Shown: positions 36,544 to 49,056 of the stretch, piece by piece
How the letters are laid out: every line of letters begins with the position of its first letter
How positions within the stretch are numbered: the stretch's first letter is position 1
Source of the DNA: an uncultured Nitrospira sp.
Lineage (GTDB): Bacteria > Nitrospirota > Nitrospiria > Nitrospirales > UBA8639
Reading direction: 5' to 3'
NCBI RefSeq assembly: GCF_902500695.1
Contig: NZ_CABVRQ010000005.1
Location: forward strand, 14,390-78,389
Length of the DNA stretch: 64,000 nt
Made by a program: the position numbers and the translations under genes
Notes under the pieces: generated by a model
The model's database searches: none
What the model saw: only the letters and a program-made list of their open reading frames with translations
What the model was told of the DNA's origin: nothing

Positions 36544-37812
36544 TCAAGTTTTAAACTTGAATCGACTTTTTGATGTGACGCCTGGTCGACGAGGCCGTGC
36601 CTTGCTTGTTGTGCCAGAAGTCGAAATCGTCTTCTTGCGCCTGGTGGGTTTTGGATTTCCCTGGCGCGGCCAAAACTGACCAGCAGGTCCCGATTTAGGC
36701 AAATTTTCCGTTCTTTTGATCGGCTGATCTTTGGATTCGTGGCGCTTTCCTTGGCCGGTCGTTCCCACGGGCGCTGGCGTGCTCTTCCTTCTGATGGAAT
36801 CCGGGTTTGGTGAGGGTGGCCGTGAAGGAGCTGTCGGTCTGGCCGTCGGTCTGGATGAAGGGGCTTTTTCAACTTTCTGAATAGGCTGACGAGTGGAGAG
36901 CCATGGCCGAGATTTCCCCGTCGATTCCGAAGGAGATGGGGTGCTGTTACTTCTCATGGAATTCGTGATTGCCGAACGTGGCCGTAACTGCCCTGCAGGT
37001 CTGAATGCCGGAAACTTTTCGGTTCTCTTAATCGACTGCCGGATAGCCGGACGTGGCGATTCAGGTGCGATGAGTAAATGGCGCAGGTCATTCGCTTCCT
37101 TATCTGTCAAGTATCGCGTCTGACCTGGAGGAAGGGTTCCAAGGTTCAAAGGCCCAAACTGAACACGTTTTAACCGGATCACGGGATGGCCAATTTGCTC
37201 AAACATGCGTTTGACTTGGTGCTTACGTCCTTCATGAATGGTAATTTCTACCCAGGAATTGGCTGCCGCTTTTCCAGCTTTTTTTACTTTTGCGGGAGCT
37301 GTGGGCCCGTCCTCCAACATCAGTCCATGTCGAAGGTTTTGAATTTCTGGTTCTTCTAAGATACCCTTGATTTTCACGAGATATGTTTTATGGACATGAT
37401 GTGCGGGGTGAAGGCAGGCTTGTGCAATATCACCATTATTGGTAAGCAGGAGCAAGCCTTCACTATCATAGTCCAAACGTCCGACGGGAAATAACCGGAT
37501 GGAAGGTTTCGGAACCAAGGCTTTAATCGTAGGGCGACCCGCGGGATCATGTAACGTGGAGATATATCCCAACGGCTTATTGAGCATGAGAAACATATCG
37601 GGAGGGCGGGACTTCAGGTGGCGTCCTTCGACCTTGATGTGGTCAATCGCAGGATCGACTTTGGTCCCTAGCGTCATGACCGTTTCCCCGTTGACGGTGA
37701 CCAGACCATGTTGGATAAGTTCTTCAGCCTTGCGTCTGGAGGTGAAGCCGGAACGGGCGATAATTTTTTGTAAACGAACTGTTTTCTCTGCCTGAGCCAT
37801 AGCTATTCCCAT
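36544..37812 (-). CDS. rluB: 23S rRNA pseudouridine synthase RluB-type with long basic C-terminal tail
   Basis: 422 aa. S4 domain ([20 protein letters not shown]), RsuA/RluB catalytic motif [17 protein letters not shown]. The ~170 aa Pro/Ser/Arg/Lys tail has an internal repeat. Confidence 0.85.
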
Positions 37813-39359
37813 TCGATCGTTGCTGGGGGTTTTGAGCTAATGTCATACACCACACGGTTGACCCCTTGCACTTCATTGATAATTCGATTGGACATTTTGC
37901 CCAATACCTCTGGGGGAATTACGCCCCAGTCCGCAGTCATGCCGTCCGTACTGGTGACGGCACGAATGGCGACCACCGATTCGTAGGTCCGTTGGTCGCC
38001 CATGACGCCCACAGTCTGGATTGGCAGTAGGACAGCGAACGATTGCCAGATGATCCTTGATAGTCCGGCTCGTTCGATTTCATCACGGACAATGGCATCC
38101 GCCTCACGAAGAATGGCCAGGCGCTGGGCGGTCACGGAACCAATGATGCGAATTGCTAAGCCCGGACCGGGAAAGGGTTGTCGCCAAACAATGTCATCCG
38201 GCAGACCTAATTCCAATCCCAATTGACGAACTTCATCTTTGAACAATTCTCGAAAAGGCTCAATCAGTTTGAATTTCATGCGTTTCGGTAAGCCACCGAC
38301 ATTATGATGTGTTTTGATTGTTGCCGATGGCCCTTTCACGCTCAGACTTTCGATCACATCAGGATACAGTGTCCCCTGAACGAGAAATCTGACCGTGCCT
38401 AAAGAGACCGCTTCCTGTTCGAAAACTTTGATGAATTGACGACCAATGATTTTTCGTTTGCGTTCCGGGTCTGTTGTGCGTCCCAGTGCTGACAGAAAAG
38501 TGTCTCCATGGTCAGCAATGCGAACCTTCAGATGATAGGCGGAATCAAAAGTCGTTTGTAATTGTGCCACTTCATTCTTTCGCATAAGGCCATTGTCAAT
38601 GAAGATGCAGGTCAATTGGTCTCCGATTGCCCGGTGAGCCAGGACAGCGGCCACTGTGGAATCCACTCCCCCGCTGAGTGCACAAATGACCTTCCCGCTG
38701 CCGACAGTCTCCCGGATGTCTGTCACGGCTTGTTCGATGAATGATCCCATGGTCCAAGTTGGCTCGCAGCGGCAGATATGACGTGCAAAGTTTTGAAGAA
38801 TCGTTGTCCCGTGAAGGGTATGGATGACTTCAGGATGAAACTGGATCCCAAAGAGCTGTTGTGTATTTTGGGAGGATCTCATCGCGGCGATCGGGGCATG
38901 GGCCGTGTGGGCGATCGCATGAAATCCTGGTGGAAGTTGTTGAACGGAATCCCCATGAGACATCCAGACAGGAAATGCGGTTGACGGATCAAGGCCAAGA
39001 AATAAATTCGTGTTGTCGTCAATGGTCAGATCGGCTCGACCGAATTCACGATGGGGTGTGGGGTTGACGGTTCCGCCACATTGATGGGCGAGTAATTGCA
39101 TGCCGTAGCAGATGCCCAAAATGGGTATGGCAAGGTCAAAAATTTGGCTGTCTATTTTCGGGGCATGGGCCTGAGTAACGCTGGCCGGTCCTCCGGAGAA
39201 AATAACCCCTTTGGGGTGGTAGGCAAGGATATCCTGAACCGTCGCCTGCGAGGGGAGGATGACAGAGAAAATGTGGAATTCGCGTATCCGCCGTGCGATG
39301 AGTTGCGTATACTGCGATCCAAAATCCAGAATGACAATGGTATCGTGTTGCGAGTGCAT
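37803..39359 (-). CDS. guaA: GMP synthase (glutamine-hydrolysing)
   Basis: 518 aa. GATase domain (GICYGMQ, HPE), ATP-PPase loop SGGVDSTV, and the conserved C-terminal ...KPPATIEWE. Confidence 0.97.
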
Positions 39360-39418: not shown

Positions 39419-40882
<1,464 letters not shown>

Positions 40883-41149: not shown

Positions 41150-44092
41150 CTATTCCGCTGCTTCAGGAATAAAGGCCATCGTTTCTTCTTCTTGGAAATG
41201 ATCTTCGGCTTCCTCTGCCTGCATGAATTCCTGAACTCGCATATTGCCGCTATCAACGGAATAAATGTGTCCTCTGGAGTCAGCCCCTATTCCATAGGGA
41301 AAGTTGAATTGGCCATCCTGGGAGCCGAAGCCGCCCCATTGGGTAATAAAGTTACCGTCTCGATCAAACTTTTGGAGGCGTTGGTTGCCGGTATCACTGA
41401 TAAATACGTCGCCTGATTCGTCTACAGCCACACCCCAGGGCGATCGGAATTGTCCCGGTTCTTGTGCCTGAGCGCTGCTGGCATGGCCAGGCCCAATGCC
41501 GCCGCCCCACTTGGTGAGTAATTGGGGGAGGACGTTTGAGCTGGTATCAAATTTTTGAATCCGATGATTACCCATATCAACCACATAGACGGTTCCGTCG
41601 GTTTGATCCACCGCAATACCTCGCGCAAAATAAAACTGCCCGTCCCCATTCCCAAAGCTTCCCCACTGCATGATAAATTCCCCGGTTTCATCAAATTTTT
41701 GAATCCGAAAGTTCGCACTATCGACGACATACAGGTACCCGCGGACCCGGTCTACGGCTACACCCCATGGAGCATTAAACTGTCCTTCGCCATTACCACG
41801 GGATCCGAGCTTCATCATGTAATGCCCTAATTTCCCATCAAACTTTTGAATACGATGGTTATTAGTGTCTGCCACATACACATTGCCATTCGCATCACAT
41901 GCGATACCGGTTGGGTTATTGAAACCGCCATTAGCGGAACCGAAACTTCCCCATAGTAGGATGAAATTGCCATTACGGTCGAATTTCTGGACTCGGTTGT
42001 TTCCGTTATCAACCACAAACAATGATCCTTGGCGATCAATCGTCAGCCCGTATAAAGGACTAATGAATTCTCCTCCATGGAGTAGCGAGGCTCCACGGCC
42101 TGGTTTTCCCCACTTTGTGGCACAAATATACCCGGACGTGTTGAGAAGGATATGGGTGCTGGCAGGAACAGAAACGTTATTGTTGGCATCTTTAAACCAA
42201 ACGTAGACGGTTTTTGTGCCATCGGTTGGAGAGGTGGTAAAAGGAATCGTGGCTCCAAATTTTTGTTCCGGCTCCACCTCAACCCACCCAGGCATGGTCC
42301 CGCTTGGGGTCATGGGATTTTCAGAAATGAAGTAGGCGGCCACTCCGCTATCTACGTCTTTAGCTGAGATGGTGGCGACCATGTCAGGACTATTGGTCAT
42401 GTAAGCCCCATGATTTATGACGATGTCAGGATTTTGAGGTGCAGAAATGTCGATCAGAACCGGGATAGCGGTTTGTTCTTCAGAAATCCGGCTTTCTGCT
42501 CCTTCTTCAGTGACTGAGGTCATGGCATAAAAATATGCCGTGTCATTCGTGAGGCCACTATGAATATAGGGGGTGGTCACGCCTTCAATCTTTGTGGAGG
42601 TATCTGTAGATATATGTGGTTCGGTACTGAAATAGAGGTTGTAACTGATGGCATTGGGAACTTCGAGCCAACTAAGGATGTTTTCCGTATCTCCGGGTTT
42701 AACGGCAAGGTTGATGGGGGCGGTAAGATCGCTGGAAACCCGTTTTTCTTGTTTGCCTCGATTGAGTTCTTCTTCTGTTGGGGCAAACTTGGTTAAACGA
42801 TGGTTGCCGCTGTCTATCACGTACACATATCCCTCTTTGTCTACTGCAATTCCTGACGGGAAATTCAGCTGCCCTTCGGTTAATCCCCGATTTCCCCAGG
42901 AAGTTAGATAAGTTCCGCTAGAATCAAATTTTTGGACGCGGTGATTTCCGCTGTCGACAATATAGACATATCCCAACGGGTCGCAGGCGACTCCCCATGG
43001 GGCTTTGAATTGGCCTGGGGCATTACCTTCCTTTCCCCACTTCAAAAGAAAGTTCCCACGTGCATCAAATTTTTGGATCCGATGGTTCCCCTCATCGGCA
43101 ATATAAATATTCCCGACAAAGTCAACTGCGAGGCCCCGAGGATAAAAGAACGCGCCGTCATATCCCCCGTCACGGCCCCACTTAAGCACAGGGGAGCCGT
43201 TTGGCAGGAATTTTTGAATTCTTGCATTGCTGGTATCAGAGACAAACAGATTGCCTTGAGAATCCGTGGTAATACCCCAAGGGACATCAAACTTCCCTGC
43301 TTCGGCCCCCCGCCAGGCAAAACCAAATTTTCCCCATGCGTTGATAATATTTCCTTCGGAATCAAATTTTTGGATGCGATTGTTCCCACTGTCGGCCACA
43401 TACACCTCTCCTTCTGGTGAGGTGGCGATGCCCCGTGGGTAGTAAAATTTTCCTTCGGTTGAGTCGGGTTCGTCTCCCCAACGTGCAAGAAATTTTCCCG
43501 ATCGGTCAAATTTCTGAATCGAATGATTGTCTGTGTCGCCGACATAAATATTTCCATCTTTATCAATAGCAATGCCGGTTGGTGATTTGAATTCTCCATC
43601 GTCGACACCTTCACACCCGATTTGCATGACGGAGAGGTAGGGAGAGGGAATGGACATCACTTCCTCGGACAATAGACTTTCACCTTCTTCTGTGACCACA
43701 GAGATGGCATAGTGGTAACAGAAGTTATTGGCCAAGTCGTTATGTTCGTAGGGAGATATCGCTCCTTCAATATAATTGGCTTTTTCTTTTGTAATCCCAA
43801 CTTTTGGGATGAAATCCTCATGTCCTGCTACTGGTCTCGTCAGCTCATTGGGCTTAATTTGAACGCCTTTGGTTGTCATGAAATACACGTTGTAGTACAG
43901 GGCTTCAGGGACAGGATCCCATGTGAGAGTAATGCGCGTATGATCAGGGATAGCACGTAAGTTGTCTGGTGCCTGTGGAATATTGGCATCCTGGTCTTGT
44001 CCTGCTCCCCAGTCCTCCCCCCCACTTTCTACGGTCAACATGTTTCGAGAAAGCGGATATTCATAAAATAAGGCATCGAGAAGTTTTGTCAT
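41150..44092 (-). CDS. large FN3 + NHL-repeat protein (two six-bladed NHL beta-propellers)
   Basis: 980 aa. Two modules, each with an FN3-like segment (ITLTWDPVPEALYYNVYF / ILSWLEVPNAISYNLYF) followed by six blades ending in N[HN]R[IV]QKFD-type strands, 12 in total. No N-terminal signal peptide is visible. Confidence 0.85.
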   Translation of the reverse strand: MTKLLDALFYEYPLSRNMLTVESGGEDWGAGQDQDANIPQAPDNLRAIPDHTRITLTWDPVPEALYYNVYFMTTKGVQIKPNELTRPVAGHEDFIPKVGITKEKANYIEGAISPYEHNDLANNFCYHYAISVVTEEGESLLSEEVMSIPSPYLSVMQIGCEGVDDGEFKSPTGIAIDKDGNIYVGDTDNHSIQKFDRSGKFLARWGDEPDSTEGKFYYPRGIATSPEGEVYVADSGNNRIQKFDSEGNIINAWGKFGFAWRGAEAGKFDVPWGITTDSQGNLFVSDTSNARIQKFLPNGSPVLKWGRDGGYDGAFFYPRGLAVDFVGNIYIADEGNHRIQKFDARGNFLLKWGKEGNAPGQFKAPWGVACDPLGYVYIVDSGNHRVQKFDSSGTYLTSWGNRGLTEGQLNFPSGIAVDKEGYVYVIDSGNHRLTKFAPTEEELNRGKQEKRVSSDLTAPINLAVKPGDTENILSWLEVPNAISYNLYFSTEPHISTDTSTKIEGVTTPYIHSGLTNDTAYFYAMTSVTEEGAESRISEEQTAIPVLIDISAPQNPDIVINHGAYMTNSPDMVATISAKDVDSGVAAYFISENPMTPSGTMPGWVEVEPEQKFGATIPFTTSPTDGTKTVYVWFKDANNNVSVPASTHILLNTSGYICATKWGKPGRGASLLHGGEFISPLYGLTIDRQGSLFVVDNGNNRVQKFDRNGNFILLWGSFGSANGGFNNPTGIACDANGNVYVADTNNHRIQKFDGKLGHYMMKLGSRGNGEGQFNAPWGVAVDRVRGYLYVVDSANFRIQKFDETGEFIMQWGSFGNGDGQFYFARGIAVDQTDGTVYVVDMGNHRIQKFDTSSNVLPQLLTKWGGGIGPGHASSAQAQEPGQFRSPWGVAVDESGDVFISDTGNQRLQKFDRDGNFITQWGGFGSQDGQFNFPYGIGADSRGHIYSVDSGNMRVQEFMQAEEAEDHFQEEETMAFIPEAAE

Positions 44093-44916: not shown

Positions 44917-46014
44917 TTGTCCAAGCCGTTGATCAGACTACTTGATCGGTACATTTTTTTTGAGTTGCTCCCCCCGTTTTTGACCAGCCTGACCGGATTG
45001 TGTTTCATCATTTTTACCAAGGAAATGCTACGGCTGGTGGACTTAGTGGTATCCCGAGGGATTAGCTTGGCCGCCTTGGGTTCAATTGTGCTGCATTTGC
45101 TTCCTTCCTTTTTAGTCCTGACCTTACCAATTGCCTGCTTGATTGCCTCAATTTCGGCATTTAATCGCCTGTCGTTTGATAATGAGGTGATTGCCATTCG
45201 AGCCGCTGGGGTCAGTTTCTGGCGAATCAACCTTCCTGTAGTGGTCTTTTCCGGTATCGTATTTCTCTTAACCGTGTATCTTTCTCAATGGGGCCAACCG
45301 TGGGCCAATGTTTCATTGAAGACTTTGGCCCTGAGTGTCATCGAAGATGAGTTGACTCTTGCTGTTGATTCGGGTGTGTTTAATGAACCGATTCCCGGAC
45401 TCATGGTGTATGTGCCTCACTCGGAGAATGCCTCCGGCCATAAGGGCGTATTTATTTCTGATCAGCGTAATCGGGAGCAACCCTTGATTATTGTGGCGGA
45501 GAATTTTCAAATGTTGAAACAGAGCGAACGTCAGCAGTTTGGCATTCGCCTGTTTAGGGGGGCTATCCATCAAATCCCCAAAGATGCCAATAGTTTTCAT
45601 CGGGTCACCTTTGATACCTATGATTTTTGGCTTTCTTCACCATTTACGTCAGTGAAAGAAAAGACCAAACGGAAAACCTACGAAGACCTCACGCAACAAT
45701 TGGAAGAATCAGGTGGATCGGATGCTGGTGCCCTTCGTCGATTAATAGAGTTTCATAAAGACACGGCCTTTCCGGTCGCCACCTTTGTGCTGGGGTTATT
45801 GGGCGTCCCAATCGGAATTGTGTCGAAGCGGTCGGGCAAAGCAGGAGGGTTTGCGATTGGGGTTCTCGTGGTCATCGGGTTTTATCTATTAAATGTGTTG
45901 GGAGAGTTTCTCGTGACGACTTTGGTGATTTCTCCATTTGCCGGCGCGTGGATGCCTAACATCGTCCTGGCCTGCCTGACAGGATTTTTATTTGTTCAAG
46001 CCCGAAAACAATGA
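44917..46014 (+). CDS. lptF: LPS export ABC permease LptF (YjgP/YjgQ family)
   Basis: 365 aa with a TTG start. LLDRYIFFELLPPF N-terminus, six TM segments around a periplasmic beta-jellyroll region, followed by its paralog. Confidence 0.75.
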   Translation: MSKPLIRLLDRYIFFELLPPFLTSLTGLCFIIFTKEMLRLVDLVVSRGISLAALGSIVLHLLPSFLVLTLPIACLIASISAFNRLSFDNEVIAIRAAGVSFWRINLPVVVFSGIVFLLTVYLSQWGQPWANVSLKTLALSVIEDELTLAVDSGVFNEPIPGLMVYVPHSENASGHKGVFISDQRNREQPLIIVAENFQMLKQSERQQFGIRLFRGAIHQIPKDANSFHRVTFDTYDFWLSSPFTSVKEKTKRKTYEDLTQQLEESGGSDAGALRRLIEFHKDTAFPVATFVLGLLGVPIGIVSKRSGKAGGFAIGVLVVIGFYLLNVLGEFLVTTLVISPFAGAWMPNIVLACLTGFLFVQARKQ

Positions 46015-46042
46015 TCAAGATTTTTTTCAAACAGATTCGATC

Positions 46043-47131
46043 ATGAAAAAAATTTCTTGGTATGTGTTTGGGAAATTCAGCCGGGCTTTCCTGATGTGTC
46101 TTGTAACCGTACTGACGATTTATCTCGTCGTGGATTTTTTCGAAAAATTAAGAAAGTTTTTGAAATATGATGCAGATTTAACGGTTATTTTCAGCTTTTT
46201 TGTCTATCGAATTCCTGAAATTGCCTTTTTACTGGCCCCACTGGCAGCGCTGATGGCGTCAATTTTGACCGTTGGTGGGCTGAATCGGACTCGTGAAATC
46301 ACGGCGATGCGTAGTTGTGGTTTAAGTTTTTATCAAATTGCCATTCCCTTTTTTGTCTTTGGTGCGCTCGTGAGTGTCGTGGGTCTGAGTTTGACGGCTG
46401 TGTTGATTCCCCTGGCCAATATCAAAGCCGAATATGTCCAATCGGTCTTGATCCAAAATAAACCAGAGCCCCTCTTACTCACTCCTGAACGTTTGTGGCT
46501 CCGAGTGGGACGAAATCACCTTTTGCGTATTGATTCGGTGACAGAGGATGGATTTCGTTTGAATGGTATTCATCAGTACACACTTGATGATGGCTTCAGT
46601 CTCAAGGAAATCCTTGAAGGGGAATGGGCAGCATTTGTCGATGAGGAATGGGTGATAGAGCATGTGATTGAGCGAACATTTCAAGGGGAAGATCGCATGC
46701 AAGTGAAGGGGAGGCCACGGCAGGTGTTGTCCCTTTCCCTCACGCCTGAAGATTTTCAGAATTGGCTATCTCAGTCTCCAGAGCATATGTCGTTGTATCA
46801 ATTGCATGACTATATTCAGCGAGTAATTGAAGATGGCCATAGTCCTCATCGTTTTTTAACTGATTATTGGGCTCGTTTTGCCTACTCCCTCGTTCCTCTG
46901 GTGATGACACTGCTAGGGATCTCGGTAAGTCTTCGAGGAAGTGGTGAGCGTGGGGTTGGAGTCGCAAAGGGGCTTGGGCAAACTCTGGCAATTGGGTTTT
47001 TCTTCTGGGCGGCGCATTCGGTGGGTATTGTCTTAGGACGCAATGGAGCGGTGTTGCCGATCATTGGTAGCTGGATTGCCACAGCCATGTTTTTGATCAT
47101 CGGGATTAATCTTTTTTTAAAGCTAAAATGA
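46043..47131 (+). CDS. lptG: LPS export ABC permease LptG (YjgP/YjgQ family)
   Basis: Start at the ATG at 46043 (MKKISWYVFGKFSRAFLMCL...VVDFFEKLRKF), YjgP/YjgQ architecture, in the lptF-lptG tandem order. Confidence 0.75.
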   Translation: MKKISWYVFGKFSRAFLMCLVTVLTIYLVVDFFEKLRKFLKYDADLTVIFSFFVYRIPEIAFLLAPLAALMASILTVGGLNRTREITAMRSCGLSFYQIAIPFFVFGALVSVVGLSLTAVLIPLANIKAEYVQSVLIQNKPEPLLLTPERLWLRVGRNHLLRIDSVTEDGFRLNGIHQYTLDDGFSLKEILEGEWAAFVDEEWVIEHVIERTFQGEDRMQVKGRPRQVLSLSLTPEDFQNWLSQSPEHMSLYQLHDYIQRVIEDGHSPHRFLTDYWARFAYSLVPLVMTLLGISVSLRGSGERGVGVAKGLGQTLAIGFFFWAAHSVGIVLGRNGAVLPIIGSWIATAMFLIIGINLFLKLK

Positions 47132-47429
47132 GGGATTCGCGATTTCCTTGAAGATCGATCCAATGAATGCGTGATTGGGAATTTTGTCATCGGTTGCTCG
47201 CTACCATTAGTGTTTGTTTTTGATGCTGTGCAATGTATGAATTTGTCAAATATTCTCACGAACACGCAAGGTTATTTCTTAACTCCCCCTGACTTGGATC
47301 CGATAACATCTGCACAGAGATGGAGTTCGAAGGGTAGAGCGATCCAAAGCAGCCAGGCAGTCAGTTGATAGGAAAATTCCCAAAACTCATCACTTACATA
47401 AGGTTGTGGTTATCGGATAAAAAATTTAA

Positions 47430-47525
47430 CAGGTGACAAGGGCAAACTATCCGTGAGGGTAGGGCGCAAAGCCAAGAAACCCTGAGAGCGTGGTTGTGTC
47501 AGGGTTCGTCTGGTTACCGAACTGT
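47430..47525 (+). promoter_or_regulatory. c-di-GMP-I (GEMM-I) riboswitch aptamer
   Basis: GGUGAC-AAGGGCAAAC-UAUCC-GUGA-GGGUA-GGGCGCAAAGCC-AAG-AAACCCUG..CAGGGUU-CGUCUG-GUUACC-GAAC. This has the P1 helix GGUGAC/GUUACC, a GNRA-capped hairpin, a 7-bp P2 helix, and the conserved GGGCAAAC, CGCAAAGCC and GGUUACCGA blocks as in V. cholerae Vc2. Confidence 0.8.
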
Positions 47526-47550
47526 GTTGGTAGGTCCATGCGTTCGTTCA

Positions 47551-47584
47551 TGCGCCCATTCCCTGGAATCGGGCGCTTTTTTTT
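47551..47584 (+). terminator. intrinsic terminator (riboswitch expression platform)
   Basis: GCGCCCATT..AATCGGGCGC hairpin followed by T8 (47577-47584). It lies 24 nt before the sigma-factor ATG and just upstream of the AAGGGAAAGG RBS. Confidence 0.8.
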
Positions 47585-47607
47585 GGTCACAAGGGAAAGG
47601 CCGAAAT

Positions 47608-48486
47608 ATGAACGAAGACGCGCAACATTTCACAGAGCCAGCAGTTGGTGTCGAAGAACTCGACTCGTCTTGTCTTGGCTCAGTTAGATATGCCAAAGAA
47701 GAACAGACGGAGGTACAGGACCAGCTCGGGCAGGAACATGTTACCCGGATTTTATTGGAGTTTCTCCCGACCATTCGCCGGATGGCTGGAATCATGGCGT
47801 TCAAGAATCCCTTTTCCCTGGATGTCGAGGATTTGACGAGCGCAGGGGCTATGGGTCTGTTGTCGGCGTTAAAGCGCTATGATCCCACACGGGATGTCAA
47901 ATTTCGAACATTTGCCGAATATCGAATCCGTGGCATGATGTTAGATGAAATTCGGGCCATGGATTGGGTTCCTCGGTCCGTTCGATCTCGCCGAGATCAA
48001 GTGCGACAGATTGTTGAAGAGCATCTTCAGAAAAACGGTAAGCCACCGACTACACAGGAATTGGCCACGCTATTGGGCGTTCCTATTGATGAAATAGAGG
48101 GAGTGGGAGGGTGTGATCCTCGTTTAATTAGTCTGGATGAGCCGGTTGGTCAGGGGGAAGATGAATGTACGCTTCGTGATGTTTTGCCGGATGTTAACCA
48201 TCTGGACCCTTTTGTGGCCTGTGCGGATGCAGAAATGAAGGCGGCATTGGCAGCGGCGCTTGAGACATTATCGGCACGCCAGCAAGAGGTACTTCAATCC
48301 TATTATCACAACGGATTGACGATGAAAGAAATTGGTTACCAAATGGGTCTTACTGAATCTGGCGTCTGTCGGGTGCATTCCGGTGCACTCCGACATTTAC
48401 GCATAGAGTTGAAACGTATTGAGGATGGGGGACCCAGTGCCCCTCGTCCTAAGAATTTACGAAAAACGCGTGTAGCTGATGACTAG
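47608..48486 (+). CDS. fliA: RNA polymerase sigma factor, FliA/WhiG (sigma-28) family
   Basis: Start set at the ATG at 47608, after the RBS and downstream of the terminator. GLLSALKRYDPTRDVKFRTFAEYRIRGMMLDEIRAMDWVPRSVR (region 2, FliA-typical DWVPRS), region 3, and region 4 LTMKEIGYQMGLTESGVCRVHSGALRHLR. Confidence 0.85.
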   Translation: MNEDAQHFTEPAVGVEELDSSCLGSVRYAKEEQTEVQDQLGQEHVTRILLEFLPTIRRMAGIMAFKNPFSLDVEDLTSAGAMGLLSALKRYDPTRDVKFRTFAEYRIRGMMLDEIRAMDWVPRSVRSRRDQVRQIVEEHLQKNGKPPTTQELATLLGVPIDEIEGVGGCDPRLISLDEPVGQGEDECTLRDVLPDVNHLDPFVACADAEMKAALAAALETLSARQQEVLQSYYHNGLTMKEIGYQMGLTESGVCRVHSGALRHLRIELKRIEDGGPSAPRPKNLRKTRVADD

Positions 48487-49056
48487 TTAAATGGTGTGCT
48501 TATTGAAGAATTCGTGTCCGCCAATTTTGGCGACTTTGCGGTTGACCTGAGCCCAACGGGGAGTTTTGACTAGTTGGGGATTATAAAACAGCACAGCCCC
48601 ATCCACCACCTTCCGACCGTCTTGCACAAGCCTCCAGGCTAACAAACTTTCTTGCATGATTCGATTCGTTTGATCAAATTTCACTTCCTCTGGATTCCGC
48701 CCCATCCATGGTTCAAACTGTTTGGCACGAAGAACCGTGCCCTTAACCGTGCCATCGCTGTGGTATTTGTGAGTCATCCGGTTCCGAATGACGGCTGCCA
48801 CGGCTAACTTTCCAGCAAAACTTTCCCCACGGGCTTCCAGGTAGATAGTTAGGGCGGCTAATGTGTCGTCGCTGTGGGTGGAATCTTTTAAGTGGGTCAT
48901 TTCTAGCGGTAATGGTGATCCAAGCGTAGAAGACGAAAGAACCCATGCGATATCAGCCGAATTTACGTGAGTAGGTGAGACAGGGATTAAGCATAAGGAG
49001 AAGGTTTCAATACCGATGATGAGGATAAAAGACAAAAGTGTTTGGTTTCGTTTCAT
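48487..49056 (-). CDS. secreted cell-wall hydrolase (SleB/Hydrolase_2 domain)
   Basis: 189 aa. Signal peptide, then LTIYLEARGESFAGKLAVAAVIRNRM, QFEPWM, LFYNP and GGHEFF, typical of the SleB-type lytic domain. Confidence 0.75.
   Translation of the reverse strand: MKRNQTLLSFILIIGIETFSLCLIPVSPTHVNSADIAWVLSSSTLGSPLPLEMTHLKDSTHSDDTLAALTIYLEARGESFAGKLAVAAVIRNRMTHKYHSDGTVKGTVLRAKQFEPWMGRNPEEVKFDQTNRIMQESLLAWRLVQDGRKVVDGAVLFYNPQLVKTPRWAQVNRKVAKIGGHEFFNKHTI

Follow-up and report, generated by a model that had tools for sequence, protein, structure and literature searches.

We analysed a 64-kb stretch of DNA (hereafter the window) from an uncultured Nitrospira sp., contig NZ_CABVRQ010000005.1, in which a class-I cyclic diguanylate (c-di-GMP) riboswitch lies in the leader of a sigma factor gene. 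The gene encodes a second FliA/WhiG-family sigma factor, and we consider it likely that the element acts on it as a transcriptional OFF switch, the direction of switching being a prediction. The aptamer and the intrinsic terminator that follows it are conserved across the order Nitrospirales, as is an alternative pairing between the aptamer core and the 5' arm of the terminator. The aptamer has the following parts.

47431 to 47521, + strand: c-di-GMP-I (GEMM-I) aptamer, from the RF01051 covariance model and covariation
47432 to 47435 paired with 47518 to 47522, + strand: aptamer helix P1 in the bound state, from the RF03167 alignment
G47442-C47467 and C47443-G47466, then CUAUCC/GGGUAG with a GUGA loop, + strand: aptamer helix P2, from the Rfam alignment
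47468 to 47470, + strand: AAA linker of the aptamer, from the Rfam alignment
47470 to 47484 paired with 47500 to 47515, + strand: aptamer helix P3, from the Rfam alignment
G47441 (G20), A47468 (A47) and C47517 (C92), + strand: predicted ligand triad, from the RF01051 and RF03167 alignments

Both strands of the whole window were scanned against 4227 Rfam families, and the aptamer was the sole match. It scores 58.8 bits with RF01051 (c-di-GMP-I, GEMM-I) against a gathering score of 35 (E = 6.2e-09 for the 64-kb window), and the match is full-length, covering model positions 1-87 of 87. An earlier note on this DNA, made by reading the letters, had named an aptamer of this class and suggested a covariance-model check, which bears it out; the + strand string that it quoted, from GGUGAC (47432-37) to GAAC (47519-22) with a 15-nucleotide (nt) P3 loop (47485-99), matches the sequence base for base. 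In GEMM-I RNAs a 3-nt internal loop divides the first hairpin into stems of 2 bp and 6 bp; this hairpin is capped by a GNRA tetraloop and is joined to the second hairpin by an AAA linker (PMC1950547). The window has the same 2-bp and 6-bp stems around an AAA internal loop (47444-46), with a GUGA loop, and these features are invariant or compatible in 36 aligned leaders of orthologous genes, the set to which the alignment statistics below refer. The earlier note had the GUGA tetraloop right but gave 5 bp to a stem that has 6; its 7-bp second helix, AACCCUG/CAGGGUU, is as it described.

The closing P1 helix of the earlier note, GGUGAC/GUUACC, has to be replaced. It would use G47513-U47515, which belong to P3 in the Rfam alignment, and C47517, the C92-equivalent, which must stay free to contact the ligand. 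AGCC (47470-73) instead pairs with GGUU (47512-15) as the outer part of the second hairpin. In the alignment to RF03167, a model that includes P1, the bound-state pairs are G47435-C47518, U47434.G47519 and G47432-C47522, with A47516 and C47517 unpaired. Orthologs L037, L038 and L040 change a G.U pair of P3 to G-C, which would be an A.C mismatch in the GGUGAC/GUUACC helix. In the 36 aligned leaders, 96.1% of cells are paired and 10 pairs have double-sided changes, a level reached by 0 of 500 shuffles; the covariation of P3 and the terminator also exceeds all slid controls. In P3, double-sided changes occur in 4 of 14 pairs, with 95.8% of cells paired, and in the terminator they occur in 6 of 10 pairs.

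The nucleotides of c-di-GMP-I aptamers that contact the ligand are G20, A47 and C92, of which C92 pairs with one ligand guanine, and the base at position 20 sets specificity: G specifies c-di-GMP and A specifies cyclic GMP-AMP (cGAMP) (PMC6140456). The equivalents of G20 (G47441) and A47 (A47468) are invariant in 36 of 36 aligned leaders (CGCAAAGCC). We take G20 to correspond to model position 11, an assignment that assumes the Vc2 numbering and sequence. Identity as a cGAMP (GEMM-Ib) aptamer, which needs A at position 20, is rejected on the G in all 36 leaders. Nor does the window qualify as the c-di-GMP-I-GGC variant (RF03167), for which it scores 57.1 bits against a gathering score of 59; it reads CGCAAA where the consensus is CGCGAA, with G at position 47. 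On these features the aptamer is a canonical c-di-GMP-I aptamer, predicted to bind c-di-GMP.

Downstream of the aptamer, the leader contains the elements of a putative expression platform.

47518 to 47546, + strand: linker hairpin P4, CGAAC (47518-22) with GUUCG (47542-46), from minimum free energy (MFE) folds
47551 to 47557, + strand: switching (T) strand UGCGCCC, the 5' arm of the terminator with its preceding U and the exact complement of aptamer core GGGCGCA (47462-68)
47552 to 47584, + strand: intrinsic terminator, stem GCGCCCAUUC / GAAU(C)GGGCGC (47552-76) with loop CCUG, then U8 (47577-84)
47585 to 47590, + strand: GGTCA(C) box right after the U-tract, conserved in about 30 of the 36 aligned leaders
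47591 to 47600, + strand: ribosome binding site (RBS) AAGGGAAAGG, from sequence, with GGAAAGG kept in most leaders
47608 to 48486, + strand: FliA/WhiG-family sigma paralog of 292 amino acids (aa), ATG at 47608, with Pfam domains Sigma70_r2, r3 and r4

The GC-rich hairpin with U8, the RBS and the ATG had all been read correctly in the earlier note. On folding, the terminator forms a 10-bp stem with a bulged C (-15.1 kcal/mol); it starts 30 nt past the end of the aptamer and does not overlap it. Of 49 leaders, 47 have a hairpin followed by six or more U in a row. A simple promoter and terminator scan found no sigma-70 promoter and missed the 47552-84 terminator, probably because its stem has the bulged C; the region was examined by hand and by folding instead. 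One divergent ortholog, L048 (L048:5663-5850), has a good aptamer (RF03167, 64.6 bits) and no U-tract terminator before the RBS, and may rely on a different and perhaps translational platform. The 5' strand of P4 overlaps the 3' strand of P1, and the basal pairs of P4 are formed in 88.6% of cells, with no double-sided changes. Folding the long leader (47314-47612) revealed no significant extra structure (z = -1.6).

The link between aptamer and terminator is the T strand. The core that it complements includes the intercalating A and the two G-C pairs with which the first hairpin begins. The helix formed by core and T strand has 7 bp and is 97.6% paired across the leaders, and in L039, L041 and L042 a G-C to A-U change is compensated on the other side (core GGACGC, T strand GCGUUC). 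Conservation of the terminator is asymmetric: 29 of 36 leaders have one and the same T strand, whereas the 3' arm varies (GGGCGC, GGGCG, GGGCGU, GGACGC, GGGCAU, AGGCGC). The T strand stays unchanged although many orthologs have a 3' arm shortened to GGGCG and that of L016 is mismatched, and a bulged G is tolerated in L038.

Folding of successively longer transcripts is consistent with competition for this strand. In the ligand-free ensemble of window prefixes ending at 47558-47570, the core pairs with the T strand with a probability of 0.4-0.5, and in these folds the antiterminator closes a compact three-way junction with P3 and P4, with linkers of 1, 2 and 4 nt. Once the 3' arm has been transcribed the terminator prevails, which is the behaviour expected of a kinetic switch. 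At the decision point, the expected number of core-T pairs has a median of 5.96 of 7 in 47 orthologous leaders, compared with 0.34 for shuffled T strands.

We propose the following mechanism. Transcription would begin before the aptamer. Its most likely start is at a conserved candidate sigma-28-type promoter some 125 nt ahead of the aptamer, and a more proximal element may serve as well. At low c-di-GMP, the core GGGCGCA (47462-68) would pair with the emerging UGCGCCC (47551-57), and the resulting junction of antiterminator, P3 and P4 would occupy the 5' arm of the terminator, so that RNA polymerase reads into the sigma gene. At high c-di-GMP, the ligand would lock the core in the P1/P2/P3 aptamer; the freed 5' arm could then pair with GAAUCGGGCGC, and the hairpin with U8 would end transcription at about 47584. 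High c-di-GMP would in this way lower the amount of the paralogous sigma factor. This direction, in which high c-di-GMP leads to termination as in the Cd1 riboswitch of Clostridioides difficile, is the most likely one because the T strand complements the core, because comparative and folding evidence agree on it, and by the strand logic of Cd1. The earlier note held that ON or OFF could not be read from sequence, which was too pessimistic, given that comparison and folding both point to OFF.

Relatives of the sigma protein were searched in one genome per species, giving 78 loci, essentially all from metagenome-assembled genomes and isolates of Nitrospirales/Nitrospira. Orthologs (L001-L051) share 51-97% identity, and the other paralog (L052-L078) shares 40-45%. 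Among 50 ortholog loci with upstream DNA, 49 have the aptamer about 165 nt upstream of the gene (48 by pattern search and L050 by Rfam), and L049 alone is without it. Seven divergent leaders (L037, L039, L043, L046, L047, L048 and L050) pass Rfam thresholds on their own, with 47.9-64.6 bits. The neighbourhood lptF-lptG-[riboswitch]-sigma, followed by a convergent hydrolase gene, orf191 and recN, is kept down to about 50% protein identity. Within the order, this feature is ancient and has been passed on by vertical descent.

The gated gene differs from the flagellar fliA of the same lineage. Its product carries about 45 additional aa at the N-terminus, and the gene itself lies at a non-flagellar locus. 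It marginally passes the FliA/WhiG model TIGR02479 (196.2 bits, cut-off 189.6) and fails the FliA model PRK06986 / NF005413 (187.1 bits, cut-off 201), as does the L035 ortholog (195.3 bits). The flagellar-cluster paralog passes both, with 266.3 bits for TIGR02479 and 248.3 bits for PRK06986. This canonical fliA sits in flhB-flhA-flhF-flhG-fliA, and at least 21 assemblies carry one locus of each paralog. The gated gene has no flagellar neighbours; it is flanked by lptF, lptG, the convergent Hydrolase_2 gene and recN. A scan of 23 flagellar-cluster loci (about 253 kb) gave no match to any Rfam family. By its scores and its surroundings, the gated gene is an additional, divergent FliA/WhiG-family paralog and not the FliA of the motility cluster. 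The earlier note had seen correctly that a FliA/WhiG-family sigma gene is transcribed here as a single gene, with a 476-nt gap to lptG and no co-directional gene downstream. Its proposal that the global motility sigma factor is itself gated does not survive, since in related genomes a separate, higher-scoring fliA stands in the flagellar cluster without a riboswitch. Automated "FliA" annotations in these genomes conflate two differently regulated paralogs.

The two paralogs of one genome are 44% identical, and region 2.3-3.0, the segment that recognises the -10 element, is nearly identical between them. Sigma-28-like promoters are therefore the probable targets of the gated paralog. Among PDB entries it is closest to WhiG in the RsiG-(c-di-GMP)2-WhiG complex (6PFV, 6PFJ; PMC7005675), with 141.7 bits, compared with 124 bits for E. 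coli FliA (6PMI). This resemblance reflects general family similarity and is not evidence of orthology.

Two conserved regions upstream of the aptamer are candidates for the start of transcription.

47280 to 47306, + strand: candidate sigma-28-type promoter, with -35 TAAC (47280-83), a 15-nt spacer and -10 TCCGATAA (47299-306)
47400 to 47420, + strand: proximal conserved block, with (G/A)AGGT (47400-04) and TnGnATAA (in the window TCGGATAA, 47413-20)

The sigma-28 consensus is TAAA-N15-GCCGATAA, and the distal site is a candidate sigma-28-type promoter close to it. Of 48 leaders with upstream DNA, 41 carry the motif CTTAAYTC...YCCGATAACA at 96-143 nt before the aptamer, with diverging spacer and flanks, and the full sigma-28-type motif has one occurrence in the window. 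Similar sites in flagellar-cluster loci (L053 and L074; L054 and L078) are too few to define the FliA promoter of the lineage. In the proximal block, columns are 70-90% conserved in 42 leaders, with no indels relative to CAGGTGAC and in fixed register with the aptamer; a -35 is not conserved at the spacing typical of sigma-70. The block could be a leader element or the -10 region of a second promoter, for which the TAGAAT-like hexamer in it would be the candidate. Readings of 47400-20 as a sigma-54 promoter, a sigma-28 promoter or a small open reading frame (ORF) were tried, and none fits across orthologs. On the minus strand, 47417-47410 reads TCCGATAA in the window and its closest relatives. 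The earlier note had allowed that a promoter downstream of 47584 would undo its proposal. Such a promoter is very unlikely, as only 23 nt separate the U-tract from the ATG, and the TTGGTCA...TATGAA arrangement found there would start transcription inside the ORF.

Several observations weigh against an OFF switch as proposed. Ligand binding and termination are predicted here by computation. Covariation in the antiterminator comes from a single clade and amounts to one event; core and T strand are otherwise nearly invariant, so that support for their pairing comes mainly from the asymmetry of conservation and from energy models. At the decision point, the window and its closest relatives reach 2.7 of 7 expected pairs, which corresponds to an antiterminator populated to only about 40%. 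The MFE structure of the full-length leader without ligand contains both aptamer and terminator, and the switch must therefore be kinetic. The L048 aptamer without a U-tract terminator indicates that the expression platform is not universal. Two candidate promoter regions lie upstream of the aptamer, and transcription of lptFG may run into the riboswitch leader.

The opposite direction is conceivable: c-di-GMP would promote read-through, and the sigma factor, made at high c-di-GMP, might drive a sessile or biofilm programme. Many GEMM-I elements are indeed ON switches (PMC1950547), and because the gated sigma factor is not the FliA of the flagellar cluster, the rule that c-di-GMP represses motility need not hold for it. 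The overlap of P4 and P1 would in principle allow the ligand to free GUUCG for other pairing, and by inspection the upstream repeat copy GCGUUCGUUC pairs weakly with the 3' arm of the terminator. Even with that pairing, a hairpin would remain in front of the U-tract. The terminator forms a hairpin of its own at a distance of 30 nt from the aptamer, and the aptamer core, which the ligand would sequester, is the only strong competitor for its 5' arm. An ON switch is thus an unlikely reading of this leader.

A different account would accept termination but shift its purpose, with the riboswitch mainly gating read-through from lptFG and setting a conditional 3' end for lptFG transcripts. From the lptG stop (47131) to the aptamer, including 47131-47280, no intrinsic terminator was detected by the simple scan, which also missed the terminator at 47552-84, and the order lptF-lptG-sigma is kept in 44 of 51 loci. 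Against this, the 476-nt spacer holds the conserved candidate sigma-28-type promoter and the second conserved block, and the aptamer-sigma pair persists without lptFG upstream in L043, L046, L047, L048 and L050; we regard control of lptFG read-through as the main function as quite improbable. We give still less credence to sensing of another cyclic dinucleotide, for example 3'3'-cGAMP or whatever the GGC variant binds. RF03167 gives three divergent orthologs slightly higher scores than RF01051 does (59.4-64.6 bits, gathering score 59), the window itself comes near that threshold, and U replaces C at the C92-equivalent in L046. The same three orthologs nevertheless have A at position 47, the window falls below the RF03167 gathering score, and both G20 and A47 are kept in the window and all 36 aligned leaders, whereas aptamers of the cGAMP class carry A at position 20 (PMC6140456). 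A c-di-GMP-responsive OFF switch on the sigma gene remains the reading that we favour.

The closest precedent is Cd1, a class-I c-di-GMP OFF riboswitch upstream of the flgB operon, which includes sigD; it has been validated experimentally (PMC5386303, PMC9262584), and the [PA][TH] versus P[AT]H strand logic has been demonstrated for it by experiment (PMC9262584, PMC5386303). The Nitrospirales element shares its aptamer class, the pairing of the terminator 5' strand with an aptamer strand in the ligand-free state and, as predicted here, OFF output through an intrinsic terminator and RNA-level repression of a sigma-28-family factor by high c-di-GMP. The two differ in context and in detail. Cd1 controls a long flagellar structural operon of a Firmicute in which sigD is one gene of many, whereas the Nitrospirales riboswitch precedes a single sigma paralog outside the flagellar cluster. 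The antiterminator strand here is the conserved core GGGCGCA, on the 3' side of P2/J, and not the strand that closes the aptamer. Cd1 has been validated by experiment, while the Nitrospirales element is known from sequence. The idea in the earlier note that a sigma-28 regulon could be tied to c-di-GMP through RNA was already known from the Cd1 flgB operon with sigD (PMC5386303).

Compared with Vc2 of V. cholerae and the RF01051 model, the aptamer has the full-length model match, the GNRA-capped first hairpin, the AAA linker and the G20/A47/C92 triad. It differs in having a GYRA-type tetraloop with no obvious 11-nt receptor and GGC in place of the consensus GAC as the internal-loop triplet; the expression platform and the downstream gene are unrelated. 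The GEMM-Ib (cGAMP) aptamers of Geobacter and RF03167 have the same fold and belong to the same Rfam clan (CL00126), but position 20 is G here and not A, and position 47 is A and not G. At the protein level, RsiG-(c-di-GMP)2-WhiG of Streptomyces and Rubrobacter places under negative control by c-di-GMP a FliA/WhiG-family sigma factor that now serves a non-flagellar role (PMC7005675, PMC8325347). The predicted control here is likewise negative and acts on a sigma factor of the same family, with WhiG as its best structural match. The means differ: control is post-translational, through an anti-sigma protein, in those bacteria, and would be co-transcriptional, through RNA, in Nitrospirales, where no RsiG was found, although no search aimed at it was made.

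Other features of the leader deserve mention. The GGTCA(C) box is complementary to the 5' end of the aptamer (UGAC, 47434-37) and pairs with 47433-37 in one full-length fold; in leaders of the L002 type, GUCACCCUG can pair with CAGG-UGAC (8 bp and one bulge). The box may act in read-through transcripts, for example in translation or stability. A near-direct repeat, CATGCGTTCGTTC / CATGCGCCCATTC, occupies 47538-47561 (+ strand), and the first of its copies, UGCGUUC, is a further potential partner of the aptamer core, by way of two G.U pairs. The L039/L041 clade has a single GCGUUC copy, which is the 5' arm of the terminator; together with the near-repeat, this suggests that the platform arose by duplication of the switching strand. 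In L046 (L046:3063-3235), the U at the C92-equivalent (GGTTATCGAAC) might alter ligand specificity.

The genes around the locus are as follows.

44917 to 46014: lptF, upstream of the sigma gene
45992 to 47131: lptG, upstream of the sigma gene
48487 to 49056, - strand: SleB-like cell-wall hydrolase (Pfam Hydrolase_2), followed by recN

The hydrolase gene is tail-to-tail with the sigma gene, with abutting stop codons, and the two are paired in 48 of 51 loci, including those without lptFG upstream. Further upstream, 41150-44092 (- strand) encodes a 980-aa NHL-repeat beta-propeller protein that matches the ScyF-like PEP-CTERM model NF035926 (390 bits), and guaB (39419-40879) and guaA (37803-39359) lie just beyond it. 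In L009 (L009:1148-1189) and L010 (L010:2731-2757), a loose pattern match, GGCAAATCTTAAGTG...GAATGCAAAAC, falls inside the lptF region and is probably due to chance. The flagellar fliA of L054 (L054:449-11431), and of L052-L078 generally, is followed by genes for a response-regulator-PP2C protein (SpoIIE-type), a response-regulator-HATPase protein, an MCP and a CheY-like protein; in L054 and L078 a CCCGATAACA motif lies shortly before the cheY-like gene.

The family to which the aptamer belongs is very large and has been studied in depth, and this is an ordinary member of it; the locus leaves knowledge of how GEMM-I riboswitches work unchanged. An OFF-type terminator platform (Cd1), coupling of c-di-GMP to sigma-28 at the RNA level (sigD) and protein-level control (RsiG-WhiG) are all already known. 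The original GEMM survey listed flagellar, chemotaxis and signalling genes and no sigma factor (PMC1950547). A literature search of incomplete coverage, and thus weak as evidence, returned nothing relevant on Nitrospira riboswitches of this kind or on a riboswitch dedicated to a sigma gene. A dedicated riboswitch on one sigma gene, in Nitrospira, appears to be undescribed. What the locus adds is such a switch on a single sigma gene, on the second paralog, with a candidate sigma-28-type promoter upstream and conservation across the order. It also offers a compact natural platform, predicted to be an OFF switch, in which the antiterminator uses the conserved aptamer core rather than P1. These findings should be useful to those who study lifestyle control in nitrifiers and natural riboswitch platforms, and will not surprise a riboswitch specialist.

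In wastewater plants, soils, sponges and oceans, nitrite oxidisers of the Nitrospira type are found mainly in flocs and biofilms, and to our knowledge their choice between attached and free-swimming life is poorly understood. If the distal promoter is functional, the gated gene would be both driven by a FliA-type factor and gated by c-di-GMP. Either the flagellar FliA would then act on it in a cascade, or the paralog would regulate itself. We tentatively raise the possibility, for which the odds are somewhat unfavourable at present, that Nitrospirales have a two-tier sigma-28 system, in which a sigma-28-type promoter (read by the flagellar FliA, the paralog or both) and a c-di-GMP OFF riboswitch together gate the second sigma factor. 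Were this the case, no riboswitch serving just one alternative sigma factor gene would have been described before this element, and it would be an RNA counterpart of the protein-level RsiG-c-di-GMP-WhiG switch. It would place over a separate regulon either an RNA-level AND gate, requiring FliA-type activity and low c-di-GMP, or a positive feedback loop gated by c-di-GMP.

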